64,000 bases of DNA, from sequence record OR352947.1. The stretch is one strand, 5' to 3'. Under the pieces are notes generated by a model that worked only from the letters and a program-made list of their open reading frames with translations, ran no database searches and was not told the DNA's origin. Position numbers and translations under genes: made by a program. Source of the stretch: Escherichia phage AV117. Of this stretch, positions 30,176-53,352 are shown one piece after another. Position 1 is the first letter of the stretch; every line of letters begins with the position of its first letter.

Positions 30176-30724
30176 TTAACGAGCCCATTTGATAATTTCT
30201 GTAATCAAATTATTACGTTCGCTTGCATTAAATCCTATAACTTTGTTAGCACCATCATGATTAAGTAATTGATACGTTTGGATTTTGTTATGAATTGCAA
30301 ACTCTTCAAAATATGAAATGACTGTATTAAAACCGAATGAAGACAAAGTAATAAGGTCGTCTTCAAAACTTTCAGTCATTTCGTTACGTGTTAAAATAAT
30401 TGTGAACACATCATGGTTTTGGCAAAGACGAACATAATCCTGTTCATAAACGTCAAGAACCGAGTCCACATCTTGTCGAATACGTCCATAAACCCAGTTA
30501 CTAATATATCCACGGTCTAACAGATAAATCTTAGTAGGGTCTAAATAATTCAACATCGTTTCGAAACAGCCAACTTCATTTCGAGACTTAACATCGAAAC
30601 GTCCATCAACTGTTCGTTTAGGGAAATCAATCTTTACATATCTTTCACTAATTTCCATTATGTCATTAATGAAAGTTGTTTTACCAGCATTATCCGGGCC
30701 ATCTACTAAAATAATTTTAGCCAT
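30176..30724 (-). CDS. thymidylate-kinase-like P-loop nucleotide kinase
   Basis: 182 aa; P-loop ILVDGPDNAGKTT (compare Tmk GxEGxGKTT) and LLDRGY (Tmk DRY-like motif). Confidence 0.55.
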   Translation of the reverse strand: MAKIILVDGPDNAGKTTFINDIMEISERYVKIDFPKRTVDGRFDVKSRNEVGCFETMLNYLDPTKIYLLDRGYISNWVYGRIRQDVDSVLDVYEQDYVRLCQNHDVFTIILTRNEMTESFEDDLITLSSFGFNTVISYFEEFAIHNKIQTYQLLNHDGANKVIGFNASERNNLITEIIKWAR

Positions 30725-30725
30725 T

Positions 30726-31625
30726 TTATTCCTCGATTACGACATCTTCATATTTAGGTATATTATACGGCGAAGAAATTAAAGCATTAAAGTAGATGAA
30801 CTCGCCAAGACCTGGATGGAATACTTCTTCAGGATTTTCGAAGTATTGAATCTTCGGACGTCCTTTAAGAATTTGATAGTACTCAGTTTTAGTTGGTTTA
30901 AAAATTCGAATCAGCGCTTCTTCAGGATACTTATTTCTGTCGAAGCTATTATTTGGATCGGTTATATAAAGCGGTTGACCTAATTGAATTGCACATTCAA
31001 CCACTTGTTCAAAACGATAGCACGGGTCACTAATTCGAAATGGATGAAAAATACCATCTAGATGAATAGGAGCCAAATCACCTACAAGACGCTGCATGAT
31101 GGAAGGACGTATAACTTTCTGCGTTACGATAATCTTATTACCATCTGCACCTGCGTTAACCAGCACTTCTTTTTGACGTTCATTCAACACAGTAGTTTGA
31201 AGTGAACGATTAACAGACAACATGTCGGTTTTTAAGAATTCGTCAATATAAAAACGTGGTTTATTAGGGTCTGCAGTGATATTGAAATTGAATTCTACGT
31301 CAAAAGTGCCGTCATATCCAGTGATATCTGTGATTAGAAAATCACAATCATAATAATCAATTAATGAATCAACCACAAATTCATTTTCAGACCAGAAATA
31401 TTTACGAGTGTTATATGCGTTATCTTTATACCATAATGGAACAAACTTAAATTCTGGGAAAAGTCGTTCACATTCTTTAATATCAGATGCATTACGTGGA
31501 TATGTAATCACATCACCCGGATTAGCACGGTGCAAATGAAGTTGGAAGTTGCCATCCTTAAGGATAGCATACTGTCCAGTTTCATAAGACCGCATACTCA
31601 AGATAGGTACGCGGAAAATAGCCAT
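30726..31625 (-). CDS. hypothetical enzyme (299 aa) in the T4 beta-gt map position
   Basis: no recognisable motif; 1-nt gap to downstream kinase and shared stop/start with the hydroxymethylase. Confidence 0.5.
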   Translation of the reverse strand: MAIFRVPILSMRSYETGQYAILKDGNFQLHLHRANPGDVITYPRNASDIKECERLFPEFKFVPLWYKDNAYNTRKYFWSENEFVVDSLIDYYDCDFLITDITGYDGTFDVEFNFNITADPNKPRFYIDEFLKTDMLSVNRSLQTTVLNERQKEVLVNAGADGNKIIVTQKVIRPSIMQRLVGDLAPIHLDGIFHPFRISDPCYRFEQVVECAIQLGQPLYITDPNNSFDRNKYPEEALIRIFKPTKTEYYQILKGRPKIQYFENPEEVFHPGLGEFIYFNALISSPYNIPKYEDVVIEE

Positions 31626-32341
31626 TAGTCAAGGAATCCTTTAACATAATCAAAATCACGTTCAAACACATGGGCACTTACCATGGTATGAGTATAATCA
31701 CCAACTTCTACACCACATTCTTTAGCGATATAATGAAGTAATTTTCCTTGGAGATAAAAATCCAACTGCATAACAACAGCACAGTTCTGAGAACGCATAT
31801 GGCAGTGGGTATAAAGCTTACCATCACGAATATAATAAGTCACTGAGTCAGTACATGGATATTCAAGTGTTTCGTCCGAATCAAGCAAAGCCTGATCTGA
31901 ACTTTCAAGAATTTGAAACACAACTCTTCGAGAGTTAGGTTTTTCTTTAAGTTCTTTTAGAAGAGTTGGTAACTGGGCCGCAATGCGAGGACCGTAGAAA
32001 GTGTTGAAGTTTGCAGGCAAAGCATCTGATTTCGGTTTAGAAATAAATTTAGCGACGTTAGGATATGCCTTAAATGCTTCTTCTGCATCAGTACCACCAG
32101 AAATCATAAATTTCCAGAAATCTTCAGCATATTCATAAGAGATGCGATTAATACGTGGGTCGGTCATTTTGAATGATGAAGGGGTATCAACAACTACTGT
32201 CATAGACCCAATTTCATTACAACGTCCAATACGAGAATCAGTAACGAACTGTGGATTTTCTAAAATTTCACGATTGACAGCTTTAAATGCGGATTGAAAA
32301 TCTTCGGCTTTAATATATTTCATTGTGTTATGTTTTCCCAT
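31625..32341 (-). CDS. 42: deoxycytidylate 5-hydroxymethyltransferase (gp42-type, thymidylate-synthase fold)
   Basis: 238 aa; PNSRRVVFQIL, YPCTDSVTYYIRDGKL (catalytic Cys), MRSQNCAVVMQLDF align by eye with the T4 gp42 blocks I recall; an Asp appears at the base-specificity position. Confidence 0.78.
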   Translation of the reverse strand: MGKHNTMKYIKAEDFQSAFKAVNREILENPQFVTDSRIGRCNEIGSMTVVVDTPSSFKMTDPRINRISYEYAEDFWKFMISGGTDAEEAFKAYPNVAKFISKPKSDALPANFNTFYGPRIAAQLPTLLKELKEKPNSRRVVFQILESSDQALLDSDETLEYPCTDSVTYYIRDGKLYTHCHMRSQNCAVVMQLDFYLQGKLLHYIAKECGVEVGDYTHTMVSAHVFERDFDYVKGFLD

Positions 32342-32390: not shown

Positions 32391-32478
32391 ATTTCTTAGC
32401 GATGTTGATATAACGTAGAGCTTCGGCTTAGTATTCCAATTGAACAGGTCCTTTAATCACTTTAGCCGCTTTAGTTTC

Positions 32479-32502
32479 AAAAAGGCCCTTATGGGCCTTT
32501 TT
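32479..32502 (-). terminator. strong symmetric hairpin terminator after the 386-aa gene
   Basis: aaaaaggccc-ttat-gggccttttt: 10-bp stem flanked by A5/T5, could terminate in either direction. Confidence 0.55.
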
Positions 32503-32579
32503 AAGAATTTGTTCGTTGCTGTTAATTTTAATAGTCAAAATCTCTTCGTTAAGTTGGTGGTTAAAAGTTTTTCTAGAAA

Positions 32580-33740
32580 TCATTCTGGGTACCTCAAAGC
32601 GTCATCAGAGTTAGTTATATCAATAATAGATATAGAGTTTTCTGATAACCCATTTTTAGATAACTGACGTTTATAATATCTTTCACAATATGTACACGTC
32701 GTCCCACAGATTTCATTAGCACAATCGAAATCTGGATGTTTGAACCACCTTTTTTCTAAAAAGCCGTCTAACAAAGAGGTTTCAATATTTACCGTATGTG
32801 AAAACTCAGTCTCATTTTCAAGAGTGAAAATGGTCTCTAAAGGCTTCCACAATTCCAACAAATTACCTTCAAATTTTTCAGAAGCATAAGCTTCAAGAAC
32901 TTTCAAAATGTAGTCTGTGCTACCTGTACGTCCTGAAACTTTGAATTGAGTGATACCAATATCATTATAAAGTTTCAAATCTTGAGGACGAACAAAACGA
33001 GTTCTCAACCAGTTAAATGGGTCTGTATCACGAGCTTTAATACAGTGTTGCATTGGATATCCATTTAAGGATTTGGCATCATCTACTGTAACGTCAGTGC
33101 TATGGAAAATATAGCAAGAGTCACGATAGCTACAATGTGTTGTATACCCTTTACCAGCATTAGAACAGAACTCATTTACAAGAACTTCAAATATTATATT
33201 GTTCTTATTACAAAACTCTGCTGCACGTTTCAGGAAAGAAACTGAACGGTTCTTATGAATTCCACAGCAGACCTTTTTGATATTATATTGGTCATGCAAG
33301 TATTTGATTTGAGTTACAGCATCGACATGTAGAATTGTTGAAACTTCAATCTCAATGTCTTTATTGACTTCACGAACAATTTCCATAACAACAGGGTTAG
33401 CGATAGTAATACGCCATACGCCTATTGACCAAAGATACTGAACATAATCCTGAATAGCTTTCTTCTTCCACTCAACTAGTTCTCTTTTTGAACCAGGATT
33501 TATCGTGTTGAGTGTATAGTTAAAGCAAATACCTAATTCGTTACAACGTTTAACGTAATCTTCTAACATCTTTTTGTCAACGTCAGGAAGCCTAAAATCA
33601 GGTCTGGCTGCTACAAAAGCCATTTCTCTTGTAGAGCCGTATACTTCGTTTATCAAGCTATTAGGATAAGTTTTATTGAGCTCTACGATTTTATCAAGAA
33701 GAGCTAAATCAAAATTCGTTCCGATTTTAAAAGTATTCAT
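32580..33740 (-). CDS. hypothetical Cys-rich enzyme (386 aa)
   Basis: C-terminal cluster CANEICGTTCTYCERYY (contains C-x3-C-x2-C) plus internal VCCG and CS..AGKGYTTHCSYRDSC; possible metal/Fe-S site; function unknown. Confidence 0.5.
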   Translation of the reverse strand: MNTFKIGTNFDLALLDKIVELNKTYPNSLINEVYGSTREMAFVAARPDFRLPDVDKKMLEDYVKRCNELGICFNYTLNTINPGSKRELVEWKKKAIQDYVQYLWSIGVWRITIANPVVMEIVREVNKDIEIEVSTILHVDAVTQIKYLHDQYNIKKVCCGIHKNRSVSFLKRAAEFCNKNNIIFEVLVNEFCSNAGKGYTTHCSYRDSCYIFHSTDVTVDDAKSLNGYPMQHCIKARDTDPFNWLRTRFVRPQDLKLYNDIGITQFKVSGRTGSTDYILKVLEAYASEKFEGNLLELWKPLETIFTLENETEFSHTVNIETSLLDGFLEKRWFKHPDFDCANEICGTTCTYCERYYKRQLSKNGLSENSISIIDITNSDDALRYPE

Positions 33741-33800
33741 TTTTTTTTTTGCATCCCACGTTAATTGATGCGATGGTTTTTGCAGGTCTTACTTAAATTA

Positions 33801-34202
33801 TTATAGATTCGGTTTATATGATTTAAATGTTTCGAATTCGCCTTTATTCATAAGAGCTTTGAATTCGTCAGGACGCATAGCTTTGTCGTCGATAATCCAA
33901 TCATATACTGGTTTATGTGTTAGCAAATTATGGTACTTCAATCCAATGTTTGCCAAGTTCTGAATCAGACTTGGGAGAATGTCAATTGCTATACGACCAG
34001 GACCGACTGACTTCATACCGCGAGCAGTGTAAAGCGTTATGGTATGCCCTGCATCATACAGGGCATTAATGGCAGACACCATTTCGACGTCTGGTTTGAA
34101 GTTCACGTAATCACGATTGTTATTCCACTCTGTTATACAATCATCGACATCAAAACAAAGATTAAGCATGTTTTCTACACGGTGCATTAGATTCGTTCCC
34201 AT
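33801..34202 (-). CDS. HAD-superfamily phosphatase, small cap-less (KdsC/GmhB-like) form
   Basis: 133 aa; motif I FDVDDCIT (DxDx[TV]), LYTAR, K, DWIIDD; overlaps the upstream gene by 16 nt. Confidence 0.6.
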   Translation of the reverse strand: MGTNLMHRVENMLNLCFDVDDCITEWNNNRDYVNFKPDVEMVSAINALYDAGHTITLYTARGMKSVGPGRIAIDILPSLIQNLANIGLKYHNLLTHKPVYDWIIDDKAMRPDEFKALMNKGEFETFKSYKPNL

Positions 34203-35872
34203 TGATGAGTGATATCGCCACCGATTGGACGATAAGAAACACCGGTTTCTTTATCAGTTAGTACCCATTTACCAGGATTTTTTGTAATCAGAGTAGCCGT
34301 TACAGGTTCTGCTACGTCATAACTAATAGAGCCGTCCTGAAGTACACGGCCCATGTTACGTAATTGCTTAGTCAGAAGTTCCATACCTTTATAATATGCG
34401 GCTACCGCTTTAAGTGGATTATTCTTGAAATAACCACCTAATGCAATCCAGATAATTGCCGCTGCCAAATGATGATACTCGTTAAACGAACTCATCTTTC
34501 CATATTTGTAAACTAATGGATTGATGTTAATAGACACATTACAAGTTGTTTCATCGATAGTAAACTGTCCCCAGGTCGGATTAGCATTGAATTCATCATA
34601 ACCTGAAACAGCGTAAAGCACTTTAGCTTCATCATACAATTTTGGGCCGTAAATCTTGGTTTCGCCAAAATATCCACGAGGGTCGATAAACTTGACTTCG
34701 CCGTTATCAGTAATCATAGTATTACTGAAGTTCGGGTCACCATGAATAACAGAGTACTGTCCCTGAGAACGGTTATGATAACGAATAAGGTGTTCTAAAG
34801 CTTGTTTCAGCATTGGTTTCAGACGCCCAATCTTAGTGTAGTTCACATGTGTGATTTTACCAAATGAATCAATCAATGGTTGAATACTTTCACAACGATC
34901 AATGACTTTAGTATAGAATTCTTTAGTGAAATCACGACGAACAGTTTCAGGACTTACAAAATAAGTGTCTGTGCTGAATTTCAGTGCGTCTAAAATTGCA
35001 TCAACAATTTGTGGACGAGCAAGACTCGATTTGGATTTAATATATTCAAATGCTGGCTTACCTTTAATGCGTTCCATTTCAAAGTTATTTTCATTAACAG
35101 AAACTAACTGAGGAACTGAATCTGATTTCACTTTAAGATACCATGAAATCTCATCTTTCTGAAGAGCTCGACCCTGTTCGGTTAATGCGAATTTAGTTAC
35201 AGTTTCTTCACCAATTTCAACTGCATTAAAACTACGATTAAGTTCACGAACTTCATGAGCTTTTTCAAGTTTAGGCATATCACCTAAATCAATTAGATTC
35301 ATAAGCTCTGATTTATTGAATGCGCTGCCGTAAAGGAATTCTACGAAATCGCGTCCTTTGCAGTATTCATGAATTTCCTCATCAGTAGAACCCATATAGA
35401 ATTCCCAGTCTTTGAACTGATAAATTCCTACAACATTACCACCTGTTGAACCTACGTTAGTGATATTTTCACCGTCGAAATTATATCGACATTCGTCACC
35501 CTTAACATAGATTGCGTTAACATTCCAAGACCATGAACCAAAATCAGGAATAATATCACACCAGTTAACAATTACATTATGGCCGTCTAAATCTTTGTGC
35601 AATTTAGCAAGAGCATAAGCAGAACCATACGCTTCATCAACTGTACGAATAGTCACATTGAACCCTTCTTGCTCACAATAAGCTCGAACAGTTTCAGCAA
35701 ATTTTGAATGAACTACTACAATAATTTCATCTGCGCCAAGGTCAGAATAAATTGTATACAAATTGCTCAGAATAGTGTCTTGTTTATAATTAACAAGCAC
35801 CTTAGGAATATGATGCGTTATTGGATACAAACGAGTTGCCAGTCCAGCACCAAGAATAACAGCTTTTTTCAT
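34187..35872 (-). CDS. bifunctional sugar-1-phosphate nucleotidyltransferase (N-terminal) / APH-like anomeric sugar kinase (C-terminal)
   Basis: 561 aa; N-terminal AVILGAGLATRLYPIT..IPK (RmlA/GlmU-type GxGTRL motif); C-terminal VIHGDPNFSNTMI and FIDPRG (HxDxxxxN catalytic loop and IDxxG of aminoglycoside/choline-kinase fold). Confidence 0.7.
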   Translation of the reverse strand: MKKAVILGAGLATRLYPITHHIPKVLVNYKQDTILSNLYTIYSDLGADEIIVVVHSKFAETVRAYCEQEGFNVTIRTVDEAYGSAYALAKLHKDLDGHNVIVNWCDIIPDFGSWSWNVNAIYVKGDECRYNFDGENITNVGSTGGNVVGIYQFKDWEFYMGSTDEEIHEYCKGRDFVEFLYGSAFNKSELMNLIDLGDMPKLEKAHEVRELNRSFNAVEIGEETVTKFALTEQGRALQKDEISWYLKVKSDSVPQLVSVNENNFEMERIKGKPAFEYIKSKSSLARPQIVDAILDALKFSTDTYFVSPETVRRDFTKEFYTKVIDRCESIQPLIDSFGKITHVNYTKIGRLKPMLKQALEHLIRYHNRSQGQYSVIHGDPNFSNTMITDNGEVKFIDPRGYFGETKIYGPKLYDEAKVLYAVSGYDEFNANPTWGQFTIDETTCNVSININPLVYKYGKMSSFNEYHHLAAAIIWIALGGYFKNNPLKAVAAYYKGMELLTKQLRNMGRVLQDGSISYDVAEPVTATLITKNPGKWVLTDKETGVSYRPIGGDITHQWERI

Positions 35873-35913: not shown

Positions 35914-36057
35914 CTAGTTAAAGCATTCATACTTTGCTTGTAGTCCAATCATAATCCATCCGATTATAAGAGTCGGAACCATTACTGGAGCCGTTAAGCT
36001 CCAGTAGATAGTCATGACAAGCATCAATAGTAAAAGTCCTATTGTTATTGCTTTCAT
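35914..36057 (-). CDS. small membrane protein (about 47 aa), translationally coupled to the isomerase gene
   Basis: MKAITIGLLLLMLVMTIYWSL...; ATG overlaps the SIS gene stop (ATGA); GAGG RBS; approximate. Confidence 0.35.
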   Translation of the reverse strand: MKAITIGLLLLMLVMTIYWSLTAPVMVPTLIIGWIMIGLQAKYECFN

Positions 36058-36689
36058 TGTTCGCCTCGTAACATGGCACCTAGTGCACCGCCAGGGTGGA
36101 ACTTAAGGAAGTCATTAGAGGTAAATCCACGCTCAGACGAAAGGTTGATAGCAAACGTATCGATAAGCGCTAACAACAATGTAGTGGACATAGTCGGAGC
36201 CAGAGAATTCTCATCAACCTCTACTGCGATGCCTGTACAGAAAGAGTAATCAAAAAGGGCTTCATTTTCTTGTGGAATGTCTGGGTTACAATGCAACAGA
36301 ATCTGTTTGACGTTAGGACGAATCATTTTAAGATGCTTAGCCACGCCTATCATTTCTTCAGTTTTACCAGAACGACTAATATGAATCAACACATCATTAG
36401 GCGCAATGAATCCTGCATCACCGTGAGAATAATGCCCAGTGTTCAAGTACATACTCGGGATACCGAGTGAAGCAAATGTCTCAGAAGCTTTAGTTGCAAT
36501 ATTAGCATTCTTACCAACACCCGTAATAATTACTCGGCTTTCATAATTACTAAGTCCAGGGCGTCGAAGAGTTTCTAGAATAGCATTATAACGAGCAGGG
36601 TTTTGACTAATTACTTTGGCCATAGCGGCCAAAGAAGAAGCTTGTTTTATGATTGCGTCAATAGCGATAGTAATAGGAGTAGTTTTCAT
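36054..36689 (-). CDS. arabinose-5-phosphate isomerase-like SIS-domain protein (KpsF/GutQ-type, no CBS domains)
   Basis: 211 aa; FASLGIPSMYLNTGHYSHGDAGFI, ISRSGKTEEM, LAPTMSTTLLLALIDTFAI and RGFTSNDFLKFHPGGALG align block-for-block with the KpsF motifs I recall. Confidence 0.78.
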   Translation of the reverse strand: MKTTPITIAIDAIIKQASSLAAMAKVISQNPARYNAILETLRRPGLSNYESRVIITGVGKNANIATKASETFASLGIPSMYLNTGHYSHGDAGFIAPNDVLIHISRSGKTEEMIGVAKHLKMIRPNVKQILLHCNPDIPQENEALFDYSFCTGIAVEVDENSLAPTMSTTLLLALIDTFAINLSSERGFTSNDFLKFHPGGALGAMLRGEQ

Positions 36690-51067: not shown

Positions 51068-51538
51068 TTAATCATGTTTCCACACCCCATCGGTATTTGA
51101 CCAAAGTCGCTGATTATCTGATCCTCGCCACAGTTTTTTGGTCGGAAGATTTTTCTCATACTTCCCATCAATAATAACATCAACATATTTAAGCATTTCT
51201 AGTTGTTTAATATCTTCAAACTTGTACCCTGTCCACAACCAAATGCTTTTATTGGGATAAAGATTTTTTACTGTTTGAGCAATGCAATGAACAACATCTC
51301 TGTTATCAGGATAAAGAGGGTCTCCTCCAGTTATAGTTAATCCTTCTATATAATCATTATTCAAACATTCAATTAATTGCTCTAGTGTTTCACCAGTGAA
51401 TGGAATACCATTTCTAGCGTTCCATGTTGATTTATTATAACACCCTTCACATTTATGCAAACAACCTGTAACGAAAAGAACGACCCTGCATCCAGGGCCA
51501 TTCACAAAATCACAGGGATAAAATCTATCATAATTCAT
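51068..51538 (-). CDS. nrdG: anaerobic ribonucleotide reductase activating protein NrdG (radical SAM)
   Basis: 156 aa; CxxxCxxC radical-SAM motif (GCLHKCEGC); directly downstream of nrdD. Confidence 0.92.
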   Translation of the reverse strand: MNYDRFYPCDFVNGPGCRVVLFVTGCLHKCEGCYNKSTWNARNGIPFTGETLEQLIECLNNDYIEGLTITGGDPLYPDNRDVVHCIAQTVKNLYPNKSIWLWTGYKFEDIKQLEMLKYVDVIIDGKYEKNLPTKKLWRGSDNQRLWSNTDGVWKHD

Positions 51539-53352
51539 TGGTGTTTAACCCTATGCATGATTTCTTTATTTTTGCCGAGATTAAATCCACGTTCATTCGG
51601 ATTTCCAAGATAACCGCATGTTCTTCTTATTGTGTTCATCTTTTTAGGATCAGTTTCTCCACAAATAGAACAAACAAATCCGTTTTCGGTAGGAGTCATT
51701 TCATGGGTACTTCCACACGTAAAACATTTATCTACTGGCATATTAACACCAAAATAATCTAAATGTTGCGCAGCATAATCCCAGACAGCCTCAAGACCTT
51801 TTAGGTTATTTTTCATATCAGGAAGTTCAACATAAGAAATGTGTCCACCGGTCGCAATGAAATGATATGGGGCTTCGCGAGAAATCTTTTCAAACGGAGT
51901 AATATTTTCTTCTACTGAAACGTGGAAACTATTAGTGTACCAGCCTTTATCAGTAACATCTTTTACACTTCCATATTTTTCGATATCAAGTTTACAGAAG
52001 CGATAGCACAGGTTTTCAGCAGGTGTAGAATACAAGCTAAAAGCAAAACCGGTTCTTTCGGTCCACTGCTTAAGACGAGCATTCATTTTAGTTAAAATTT
52101 CCTTTCCAATATCACGACCGACAAGAATATTCAATTCGTGAATACCAATGTATCCTAAGGACACTGAACTTCTACCGTTTTTAAATAACTCAATTATATC
52201 GTCCTCAGGTTTAAGACGAACCCCGAATGCACCTTCTTGGTAAAGAATAGGAGCAACAGTAGCTTTAACTCCTTTTAAGGAACTAATTCTACACATCAAA
52301 GCTTCAAAACACAGATCCATTCGTTCATTAAATAGCTCAACAAATTTCTGTTCATTGAATTGTGTTCCAATATAAGAATCTAACGCAATACGAGGAAGAT
52401 TCAGTGTTACAACACCAAGATTATTACGTCCATCAAGAATTTCATTACCGGTCGAATCTTTCCATACGCTCAAGAAACTACGGCAACCCATTGGAGAAAC
52501 AGGAACAGATGAACCGGTGATAGCTTTATTATTCTTAACTGAAATAATATCAGGATACATTCTTTTGCTTGCGCATTCTAAAGCAAGCTGCTTAATATCA
52601 TAGTTCGGGTCGTCTTTATAAAGATTGACACCCTCTTCAACGAACATAACAAGTTTAGGGAAAATAGGAGTTATTCCATCACGACCAAGACCTTTGATAC
52701 GATTTTTCAGAATTGCTTTCTGAATCATTCGTTCAGTCCAGTCAGTTCCCGTGCCAAATGTAATTGTTACAAAAGGCGTTTGTCCGTTTGAACTAAAGAG
52801 AGTATTTACTTCGTATTCATACGCTTGGAATGCATCGTATACGTCTTTTTCTGTTTTAGATTGGGCATAATTCAACGCATCAGCGATTTGCCATTTTTCT
52901 GCATCCTCAATATGTTTTGCATAGGTGCGTTTAACATAAGGAGAAAGTACTTTATCTACATTAGCAAAAGTCGTTCCGCCGTACTGATGTGAAGCAACTT
53001 GTGCAGTAATTTGTGCCATAATTGCAGTAGCAACGCCGATTGATTTAGGAGTTTCAATTTGAGCATTGCCTAATTTAAATCCATTCTCAAGCATCCCCTT
53101 TAAATCGACTAAACAGCAATTAGTAAATGGAAGAGCAGGAGAATAATCAATATCATGGAAATGGATAATTCCGCTTTCATGTGCTTTCATAATAAAAGAC
53201 GGGACCATATTTTTGGCAATGTGCTTAGACACAATACCAGCCATAAGGTCCCGTTGAGTTGGAAAAACACGAGAATCTTTATTAGCATTCTCGTTCAAAA
53301 GATCTTTATTAGTTTTATGAATTAATCCTTCAATTTCTTTTTCAATTTTCAT
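51535..53352 (-). CDS. nrdD: anaerobic ribonucleoside-triphosphate reductase NrdD
   Basis: 605 aa; C-terminal zinc-ribbon cysteines and glycyl-radical motif RRTCGYLG; uninterrupted (no intron). Confidence 0.95.
   Translation of the reverse strand: MKIEKEIEGLIHKTNKDLLNENANKDSRVFPTQRDLMAGIVSKHIAKNMVPSFIMKAHESGIIHFHDIDYSPALPFTNCCLVDLKGMLENGFKLGNAQIETPKSIGVATAIMAQITAQVASHQYGGTTFANVDKVLSPYVKRTYAKHIEDAEKWQIADALNYAQSKTEKDVYDAFQAYEYEVNTLFSSNGQTPFVTITFGTGTDWTERMIQKAILKNRIKGLGRDGITPIFPKLVMFVEEGVNLYKDDPNYDIKQLALECASKRMYPDIISVKNNKAITGSSVPVSPMGCRSFLSVWKDSTGNEILDGRNNLGVVTLNLPRIALDSYIGTQFNEQKFVELFNERMDLCFEALMCRISSLKGVKATVAPILYQEGAFGVRLKPEDDIIELFKNGRSSVSLGYIGIHELNILVGRDIGKEILTKMNARLKQWTERTGFAFSLYSTPAENLCYRFCKLDIEKYGSVKDVTDKGWYTNSFHVSVEENITPFEKISREAPYHFIATGGHISYVELPDMKNNLKGLEAVWDYAAQHLDYFGVNMPVDKCFTCGSTHEMTPTENGFVCSICGETDPKKMNTIRRTCGYLGNPNERGFNLGKNKEIMHRVKHQ

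Follow-up and report, generated by a model that had tools for sequence, protein, structure and literature searches.

Escherichia phage AV117 is an RB69-like Mosigvirus, a T4-like coliphage, and we analysed a stretch of 64,000 nucleotides from its genome (sequence record OR352947.1; hereafter the window). The gene under study lies on the minus strand inside a DNA-modification island and encodes gp50, a protein of the U32 family. Its surroundings are syntenic with RB69 genes 44–56, and its DNA is 99% identical to that of Escherichia phages AV112, F2 and HX01. A preliminary description, made from the letters of the window alone, had placed here a Cys-rich enzyme of 386 amino acids (aa) within a modification island. 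This picture holds: the open reading frame (ORF) has the position and length given there, and every motif quoted from it is found in the translation.

By eye, gp50 has no clear family assignment, as that description had said, but profile searches provide one. The protein matches the Pfam family Peptidase_U32 (PF01136) over residues 94–286 with 42.4 bits (cut-off, 22.4) and belongs to phrog_5757 'peptidase' (E = 2e-266); no homology to a structural or otherwise unrelated protein was found. It has the TIM-barrel-like fold of the U32 family and consists of one barrel and a tail with four cysteines (Cys4), with no further domain, a fold and family that do not agree with the second transferase offered earlier as one of the possible functions. 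A search of PDB chain sequences with gp50 returned no match, and Mk0906 (PDB 5d88) was the sole solved U32 structure matched, with 221 of the 386 gp50 residues aligned. Out of 1.84 billion proteins, a library-wide profile search retrieved only 1690 representatives (E ≤ 0.001); gp50 therefore belongs to a separate, small U32 clade. In hhalign comparisons with the four E. coli paralogs, RlhA was the best match (81.8%, E = 1e-5, 203 columns, core only), followed by the remaining three E. coli-type subfamilies at 14% (TrhP), 5% and <1%. Against the NCBIfam UbiU model, gp50 scored 19 bits (cut-off, 440).

The 'peptidase' in the family name is historical and goes back to PrtC-type collagenases; the characterised members are hydroxylation factors. 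Their established activities are O2-independent, prephenate-dependent hydroxylations, two of which take place at C5 of a pyrimidine (cytidine for RlhA and uridine for TrhP). Database entries still carry 'peptidase', 'putative protease' or 'collagenase-like protease', but that gp50 is a genuine collagenase-like peptidase is scarcely credible given what the characterised relatives do, and neither its invariant cysteine clusters nor its context of nucleotide, prephenate and glycosylation genes has any link to proteolysis.

The cysteines of gp50 are conserved among its homologs to a degree well above what chance would give. Most of those singled out in the preliminary description proved invariant in 121 homologs (down to 47% identity): the C-terminal cluster (CANEICGTTCTYCERYY, residues 340–356, with the spacing C340-x4-C345-x3-C349-x2-C352), C158 of the VCCG motif (residues 157–160), and C192, C203 and C209 within CSNAGKGYTTHCSYRDSC (residues 192–209). 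C233 is likewise invariant, and 118 of the 121 retain C177; C159, the second cysteine of VCCG, is variable, as are C66 and C72. In a set of 130 full-length representatives at greater distance, nearly all have C192 and C233, while the C-terminal four are present in 110–114 and C203/C209 in about 80. In an alignment of 63 sequences, E190, C192, C203, R206, C209, Y210, H213 and C233 are invariant. TrhP and RlhA cannot function without a Glu and two Cys of the U32 motif, and the counterparts of these residues in gp50 are the invariant E190, C203 and C209. C209 aligns with RlhA C176, and 'YRDSCY..HA' with 'YSGQCYISHA'; the equivalences of E190 and C203 are by position, not by gap-free alignment (E-x12-C-x5-C in gp50 versus E-x7-C-x6-C).

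An iron–sulfur (Fe–S) site is the best reading of these cysteines, because UbiU and UbiV bind a [4Fe–4S] cluster through conserved cysteines and RlhA requires the isc genes together with four C-terminal cysteines; the metal or Fe–S site suggested earlier is thereby upheld as a prediction. C158, C192, C203, C209 and C233 would provide enough candidate ligands, in a spread pattern like that of UbiU, although their spacing is non-canonical. A radical S-adenosylmethionine (SAM) reading of the C-terminal CX3CX2C was discarded: gp50 has no Radical_SAM Pfam match at E ≤ 0.01, the motif is C-terminal and a fourth cysteine is invariant. Comparison with RB69 gp50 revealed 22 synonymous and 3 nonsynonymous differences (dN/dS 0.03), and the gene is under strong purifying selection.

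Further evidence comes from the genes that accompany U32 in other phages. Enterobacter phage Entb_45 has a 79-aa AroQ chorismate mutase (Pfam CM_2, 40.9 bits; cut-off, 27) encoded next downstream of U32, in an ORF whose start lies on the U32 stop codon. In 51 records of T4-like phages, whose hosts span at least 12 genera (Klebsiella, Serratia, Yersinia, Enterobacter, Edwardsiella, Erwinia, Pectobacterium, Shewanella, Providencia, Morganella, Kosakonia and Escherichia), a chorismate mutase gene lies between U32 and the gene of a thymidylate synthase (ThyA) homolog. R11, R28, K39, S84 and Q88 in E. coli chorismate mutase (EcCM), residues whose roles are those known from the EcCM structure, are conserved in the phage mutases. 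Uncultivated phage contigs with U32 proteins 45–56% identical carry a fusion of 3-deoxy-D-arabino-heptulosonate-7-phosphate (DAHP) synthase and chorismate mutase beside U32 (L039, L041–L043 and L053; L numbers denote loci); a monofunctional mutase occupies this place in L045, L048 and their relatives, and DAHP synthase alone in L010 and L028. Wherever tested, the flanking mutase and DAHP synthase genes scored above the Pfam thresholds. Several distinct gene arrangements point to one metabolite, prephenate. As another use for a phage chorismate mutase we considered carboxymethylation through CmoA and carboxy-SAM (Cx-SAM; compare PMC12783734), and set it aside after Pfam scans of the cluster genes and their neighbours found no CmoA-like gene.

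The island of RB69 has recently been assigned a pathway. Lee et al. (NAR 2026, PMC13326640) reported that RB69 DNA contains mono- and di-arabinosylated 5-hydroxycytosine (5hoC), not hydroxymethylcytosine. The ThyA homolog gp48 makes 5-hydroxy-deoxycytidine monophosphate (5-hydroxy-dCMP); it was isolated with flavin, which it holds loosely and which must be reduced, and 18O from O2 enters the product (PMC13326640). The neighbour that the preliminary description called a hydroxymethylase is, according to PMC13326640, a flavin- and O2-dependent 5-hydroxy-dCMP synthase; the window protein is near-identical to PDB entries 9iqc, 9ir2 and 9iqu (E = 8e-161), deposited as 'Thymidylate synthase' and presumably the structures of the HY126 enzyme. 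In the same work, AfhE and AfhF of HY126 prepare uridine diphosphate (UDP)-arabinose from arabinose-5-phosphate, the glycosyltransferases of the pathway act on DNA, and Acinetobacter phages make tri-arabinosyl-5hoC DNA (PMC13326640). This most recent pathway paper draws no link from gp50 to U32 or prephenate hydroxylation, and Thomas et al. (2018) do not mention the U32 gene. In the searchable literature we found no paper that links a phage U32 protein to hydroxycytosine or prephenate, although a prior mention is possible.

The gene for gp50 lies between the base-modifying and the sugar-activating genes, and TIM-barrel folds are frequent in sugar enzymes. Table 1 of PMC13326640 labels gp50 'sugar or heterocycle reductase', and one phage record is annotated 'putative enzyme involved in UDP-arabinose biosynthesis'. 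A role on the sugar side, as a reductase, an epimerase or another enzyme of nucleoside-diphosphate (NDP)-arabinose, is nevertheless quite unlikely: Acinetobacter phages make their poly-arabinosylated DNA from clusters that have no gp50 gene, AfhE and AfhF are reported to make UDP-arabinose, and sugars are not among the known substrates of U32 proteins (PMC10990095). Such a role would also leave the chorismate mutase and DAHP synthase genes unexplained. The sugar-nucleotide epimerase or oxidoreductase proposed in the preliminary description is likewise unsupported, and of the functions offered there it is the DNA-base modifying enzyme that fits the evidence.

The distribution of U32 largely follows the oxygen relations of the hosts. 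Homologs of AfhE occur in 367 phage records, 57 of them from phages of Acinetobacter, a strict aerobe; U32 occurs in 221 phage records, all at least 80% identical and all with hosts among the Enterobacterales or Shewanella. In Acinetobacter phage Kimel the cluster is syntenic and AfhF directly abuts the ThyA homolog; a query for this junction returned 56 records that lack both U32 and the mutase and correspond to the 57 Acinetobacter records. At the other end of the range, a species genome collection yielded 15 contigs with U32 homologs, 12 of them from gut or rumen taxa that are strict anaerobes; the taxa of the 15 include Oscillospiraceae, Lachnospiraceae, Romboutsia, Erysipelotrichales, Tannerella, Phocaeicola and Gastranaerophilaceae. 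The window itself encodes an anaerobic ribonucleotide reductase, NrdD, which indicates from its sequence that the phage is equipped for replication without O2. A strict rule by which every phage of a facultative-anaerobe host has U32 was rejected, since it fails for Dhakavirus JS10 and Kosakonia phage 305, both of which lack the gene.

Metagenome look-ups, IMG/VR and the species genome collection together yielded 65 loci, which dereplication at 90% U32 identity reduced to 42 divergent clusters; gene content was counted within 7–10 kb of U32. The family of arabinosyltransferase 1 (phrog_3891) was present in 24 of the 42, AfhE homologs in 13, the SIS isomerase in 10, chorismate mutase and/or DAHP synthase in 10, UDP-galactopyranose mutase in 3 and a TET-associated glycosyltransferase in 2. 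A ThyA homolog of the 5-hydroxy-dCMP synthase type was found within this distance in none; the ThyA family was represented once, by a canonical thymidylate synthase (243 bits). Sugar activation, transferase and prephenate supply are thus encoded without a ThyA-type enzyme, leaving U32 as the sole candidate for making the hydroxyl acceptor in the divergent clusters. Nucleoside monophosphate (NMP) kinase genes also accompany U32, Tmk-like in the window, Tmk- or ADK-like in L001, L010 and L013, and of guanylate-kinase type, fused to a methyltransferase, in the loci of strict anaerobes described below.

These counts bear on two other explanations. One is that gp50 serves gp48 as a redox partner, for example as an Fe–S flavin reductase that regenerates reduced flavin mononucleotide (FMN); the two genes are adjacent, the loosely held flavin needs reduction and the conserved cysteine clusters suggest electron transfer. 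We consider it highly improbable: within 7–10 kb of U32, 41 of the 42 divergent clusters lack any ThyA-family gene and the last has a canonical ThyA. The ThyA homolog needs no gp50 in E. coli or in Acinetobacter phages, and the linkage to chorismate mutase would have no explanation. The other is hydroxylation of host or phage tRNA or rRNA that tunes translation during infection, in keeping with the shared family of TrhP and RlhA and with RlhA as the best E. coli match. This is very unlikely, as the gp50 family is embedded in DNA-modification clusters of very different phages and U32 is missing precisely from the aerobic-host versions of the cluster; moreover, RlhA (653 aa) and TrhP (453 aa) have additional domains that gp50 lacks, and the host already possesses both enzymes.

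We therefore propose, with a probability of about 0.55, that gp50 is an anaerobic, prephenate-dependent cytosine C5-hydroxylase that probably acts on dCMP. The enzyme would add a hydroxyl group to C5 of cytosine with the oxygen atom taken from prephenate and without O2; 5-hydroxy-dCMP formed in this way would then be phosphorylated, incorporated into DNA and arabinosylated. In this role gp50 would be the anoxic counterpart of the flavin- and O2-dependent gp48, mirroring the pairs TrhP/TrhO, UbiUV/UbiIHF and the phage NrdD/NrdAB. From a G+C content of 37.1% and a genome of about 168 kb we estimate a demand of about 62,000 hydroxylations per genome copy and millions per burst, and an oxygen donor consumed stoichiometrically would explain why phages bring their own chorismate mutase. 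No rival explanation covers all three of the prephenate linkage, the absence of U32 from aerobic-host clusters and its presence without a ThyA homolog. The sequences themselves establish the family, the fold, the conserved cysteines, the selection and the gene linkages of gp50, whereas Fe–S binding, prephenate as the donor, independence from O2, cytosine as the base and the mononucleotide as the substrate are inferred.

We favour dCMP as the substrate because NMP-kinase genes stand beside U32 in unrelated contexts and gp50 is made up of the barrel and the Cys4 tail alone. The same chemistry could act instead on cytosine already in DNA, after replication, or on dCTP or dCDP; the characterised pyrimidine-hydroxylating U32 proteins act on polymers, and the glycosyltransferases of the pathway work on DNA. 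This version is rather unlikely, since gp50 has no obvious nucleic-acid-binding domain, the NMP-kinase genes recur with U32 in several unrelated contexts, and the full replacement of cytosine in RB69 DNA fits a model in which the nucleotide pool is modified before replication.

A wider scheme, to which we give about even odds, is that phages have two non-homologous routes to 5-hydroxycytosine, one through the O2- and flavin-dependent ThyA homolog and one through a U32 Fe–S hydroxylase with prephenate, and that the two are split according to the oxygen lifestyle of the host. Phages of facultative anaerobes would carry both routes and phages of strict aerobes only the ThyA route. Many uncultivated phages, apparently of strict anaerobes, would carry only the U32 route, frequently together with a chorismate mutase or DAHP synthase gene of their own.

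Several observations weigh against gp50 as a prephenate-dependent hydroxylase. Neither the window phage nor any of the Mosigviruses examined has a chorismate mutase gene, and the slot is taken by the unrelated gp49. In aerobic E. coli, gp48 and a deoxynucleoside monophosphate kinase suffice for the formation of 5-hydroxydeoxycytidine (PMC13326640). The reductase label given to gp50 in Table 1 of that paper, with 5d88 as its structural match, is the only place there in which gp50 appears, and the literature covered contains no biochemical or genetic test of the protein. Up to 2024, hydroxylation in vitro had been demonstrated for none of the U32 proteins (PMC10990095). The canonical CX6CX15CX3/4C spacing is absent from gp50, which has C192-x10-C203-x5-C209-x23-C233, and its clade is remote from RlhA, TrhP, UbiU and UbiV; neither its full-length similarity nor its domain architecture fits any of these subfamilies. 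Eighteen of the 42 divergent clusters have no glycosylation marker nearby. Last, Dhakaviruses and Kosakonia phage 305 infect facultative anaerobes yet do without U32, and the gene is not obligatory there.

The features of the locus are listed in Table 1. A DNA polymerase gene is also among the same-strand neighbours of gp50.

Table 1. Genes and sequence features of the gp50 locus in the window.
Feature	Coordinates	Strand	Remarks
U32-family protein, gp50	32580..33740	minus	ATG start, 386 aa; ortholog of RB69 gp50 (RB69p050)
U32 core motif region, residues 190–233 (E190-F-C192...C203-x5-C209-Y...C233)	33042..33173	minus	candidate [4Fe–4S] and catalytic site
C-terminal Cys cluster, C340–C352	32685..32723	minus	candidate second metal or Fe–S site
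U32 start region, 11-A homopolymer	33738..33754	minus	directly before U32 ATG
51-aa ORF, truncated RB69 gp49 homolog	32428..32583	minus	phrog_8601, positions 1–51 of 79; start overlaps U32 stop (ATGA)
Hairpin AAAAAGGCCC-ATAA-GGGCCTTTTT, terminator-like	32477..32504	minus	76 nt past U32 stop, inside next small ORF
ThyA homolog, 5-hydroxy-dCMP synthase (RB69 gp48)	31625..32341	minus	Pfam Thymidylat_synt; function per PMC13326640
DNA 5hoC arabinosyltransferase 1 (RB69 gp46:47 family)	30726..31625	minus	phrog_3891, E = 4e-156; role per PMC13326640
Thymidylate-kinase-like nucleotide kinase (RB69 gp45)	30176..30724	minus	phrog_761; in PMC13326640 Table 1
HAD-type phosphatase (AfhF / RB69 gp51)	33801..34202	minus	phrog_1238; role per PMC13326640
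AfhE, bifunctional kinase and nucleotidyltransferase (gp52:53)	34187..35872	minus	Pfam NTP_transferase, weak kinase-family matches; phrog_4098; role per PMC13326640
SIS-domain arabinose-5-phosphate isomerase (RB69 gp55)	36054..36689	minus	Pfam SIS; RB69 annotation
Anaerobic ribonucleotide reductase NrdD	51535..53352	minus	phmmer versus PDB 1h78 (T4 NrdD), E = 0, full length

Arabinosyltransferase 1 (299 aa) and AfhE (561 aa) are each one intact ORF in the window. In the RB69 reference record both genes are split in two (gp46/47 and gp52/53), splits that have been attributed to sequencing errors (PMC13326640). A 156-aa ORF on the minus strand at 51068–51538 adjoins NrdD and is probably NrdG. 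Across T4-like genera (L007 and L015–L029 compared with the window), identity is 82–89% for U32, 41–72% for AfhE, 37–72% for the kinase and 51–71% for the arabinosyltransferase. U32 is thus one of the best-conserved proteins in the cluster, and its high identity may reflect either unusually tight constraint or recent exchange as a module.

The preliminary description had ended the gene at a strong 10-bp hairpin terminator. The hairpin is real, and RNA folding gives it a 12-bp stem with a GGCCC/GGGCC core (−17.7 kcal/mol, z = −3.4); it lies, however, beyond the end of the gene (Table 1), and a simple consensus terminator scan did not call it. The ORF in which it sits is shortened by a 39-nt deletion relative to RB69 gp49 (L081, 2757–2996) that leads to a TAA stop, giving a gp49 of 51 aa instead of 79. 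This slot is the position of chorismate mutase in other genera, with the same ATGA overlap. Neither the window ORF nor full-length RB69 gp49 is a degenerate chorismate mutase, as neither showed similarity to that enzyme by hidden Markov model (HMM) or hhalign, and an apparent resemblance at 'KKAHKGL' proved to be merely hairpin sequence. At the other end of the gene, an upstream ATG opens a mini-ORF (MQKKK and a stop codon) that overlaps the U32 ATG. In the printed sequences the A-run comprises 11 nucleotides in the window, 6 in RB69, 7 in L014 and 4 in L015; its length alters both the spacing to a putative ribosome-binding site and the frame of the upstream ATG. Slippage at this run could modulate U32 expression.

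Some of the divergent loci have gene sets of their own. In L012 (7001–13179) and L036 (10001–16281), a TET-associated glycosyltransferase gene (Pfam TAGT, 33.9 bits) directly follows U32, and genes for a UDP-galactopyranose mutase (NCBIfam equivalog, 384 bits) and a dUTPase/dCTP deaminase (DCD) lie near it. The DNA of such phages, which have neither TET nor ThyA-type enzymes, may carry galactofuranosylated hydroxy-pyrimidines. In two large phage-like contigs (L001, 7447–9939, from a 466-kb contig, and L011, 6504–8826), U32 lies between a dCMP deaminase gene and a gene for a 248–254-aa protein with faint epimerase similarity; DNA polymerase III alpha, uracil-DNA glycosylase (UDG) and single-stranded DNA-binding protein (SSB) genes are nearby, and these loci have no glycosyltransferase marker. 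Here the target base may differ, and could for instance be uracil.

A different conserved U32 module is present on metagenome-assembled genome (MAG) contigs of strict anaerobes (L054, L067 = L002/L003, and L073–L080; for example L075, 5186–9080). Its order is GP88 (PF17338), a fusion of guanylate kinase and a SAM methyltransferase, a 265-aa unknown protein and U32, and integrase, resolvase and Abi genes are sometimes found near it. The kinase–methyltransferase fusion occurs in 9–10 of the MAG loci, and the module might be a system for hydroxylation and O-methylation that yields a 5-methoxy-pyrimidine nucleotide. L002 (12160–14360) and L003 carry a second, very distant U32 paralog (22% identity) at a distance of 4 kb from the main U32. 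A radical SAM/SPASM gene adjoins this paralog, and genes for NT5C, a deoxynucleoside kinase and a protein like nucleoside 2-deoxyribosyltransferase are nearby.

If gp50 is a prephenate-dependent cytosine hydroxylase, hydroxylated and glycosylated phage DNA bases in anoxic habitats such as the gut would be explained; the only 5-hydroxy-dCMP synthase described so far needs O2. The chorismate mutase and DAHP synthase genes of phages would likewise find an explanation. A gene that is now called 'peptidase' or 'hypothetical' would gain a function; at least 221 sequenced T4-like phages carry it, and many of these are candidates for therapy. The enzyme would be the first U32 hydroxylase to act on a deoxynucleotide or DNA and also the first whose substrate is small and soluble; prephenate-dependent hydroxylation could then be reconstituted in vitro, and a tractable assay would be at hand for an oxygen-transfer chemistry of a new kind. 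Phage DNA modification, and hence resistance to restriction and CRISPR, would then depend under anoxia on the aromatic-amino-acid metabolism of the host. The proposal also implies that many uncultivated phages modify bases through U32, in some cases with the possible module for hydroxylation and methylation. The novelty would most likely lie in the recruitment of a U32 hydroxylase to viral DNA hypermodification.

Comparison with known systems places gp50 among several partial counterparts. Mk0906 (5d88), a protein of 247 residues and unknown function, shares only the barrel with gp50, at 14% identity. The phage 5-hydroxy-dCMP synthases (RB69 gp48, DLP3 gp80 and the HY126 homolog) would share its product and its pathway, and their gene is adjacent to that of gp50; they differ in having the thymidylate synthase superfamily fold and in using flavin and O2, and their activity is experimentally verified, whereas that of gp50 is predicted. 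Known U32 substrates are ribosomes, tRNA and a polyprenyl lipid (PMC10990095). The lipid is the substrate of UbiU–UbiV, the anaerobic counterpart of the flavin monooxygenases in hydroxylation of the ubiquinone ring. Both are U32 proteins that each bind [4Fe–4S] through conserved cysteines, and prephenate has been shown to be their oxygen donor. They work as a heterodimer with the carrier UbiT, whereas the phage protein is single.

Closest in chemistry is RlhA (YdcP), which makes 5-hydroxycytidine-2501 in E. coli 23S rRNA. Like gp50 it has a U32 domain, and it hydroxylates cytosine at C5 in a reaction that needs prephenate, the isc genes, the Glu (E161) and Cys (C169/C176) residues of the U32 motif and four C-terminal cysteines. 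In RlhA the U32 regions are duplicated; the enzyme binds 50S precursors, and its target is a single position in RNA, whereas gp50, at 386 aa, has a single barrel and would need to carry out about 62,000 cytosine hydroxylations per genome copy; the C-terminal cysteines are spaced C-x4-C-x3-C-x2-C in gp50 and C-x7-C-x30-C-x2-C in RlhA. TrhP (YegQ), with the essential residues E162/C170/C177, forms 5-hydroxyuridine in tRNA anaerobically and with prephenate. It differs from gp50 in its substrate (U34 of tRNA), in a C-terminal domain that gp50 lacks and in its weak profile match. Its partner TrhO depends on O2 and belongs to the rhodanese family, unlike the ThyA homolog gp48, so that two non-homologous enzymes arrive at the same product. 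The gp50/gp48 pair would follow the same logic.

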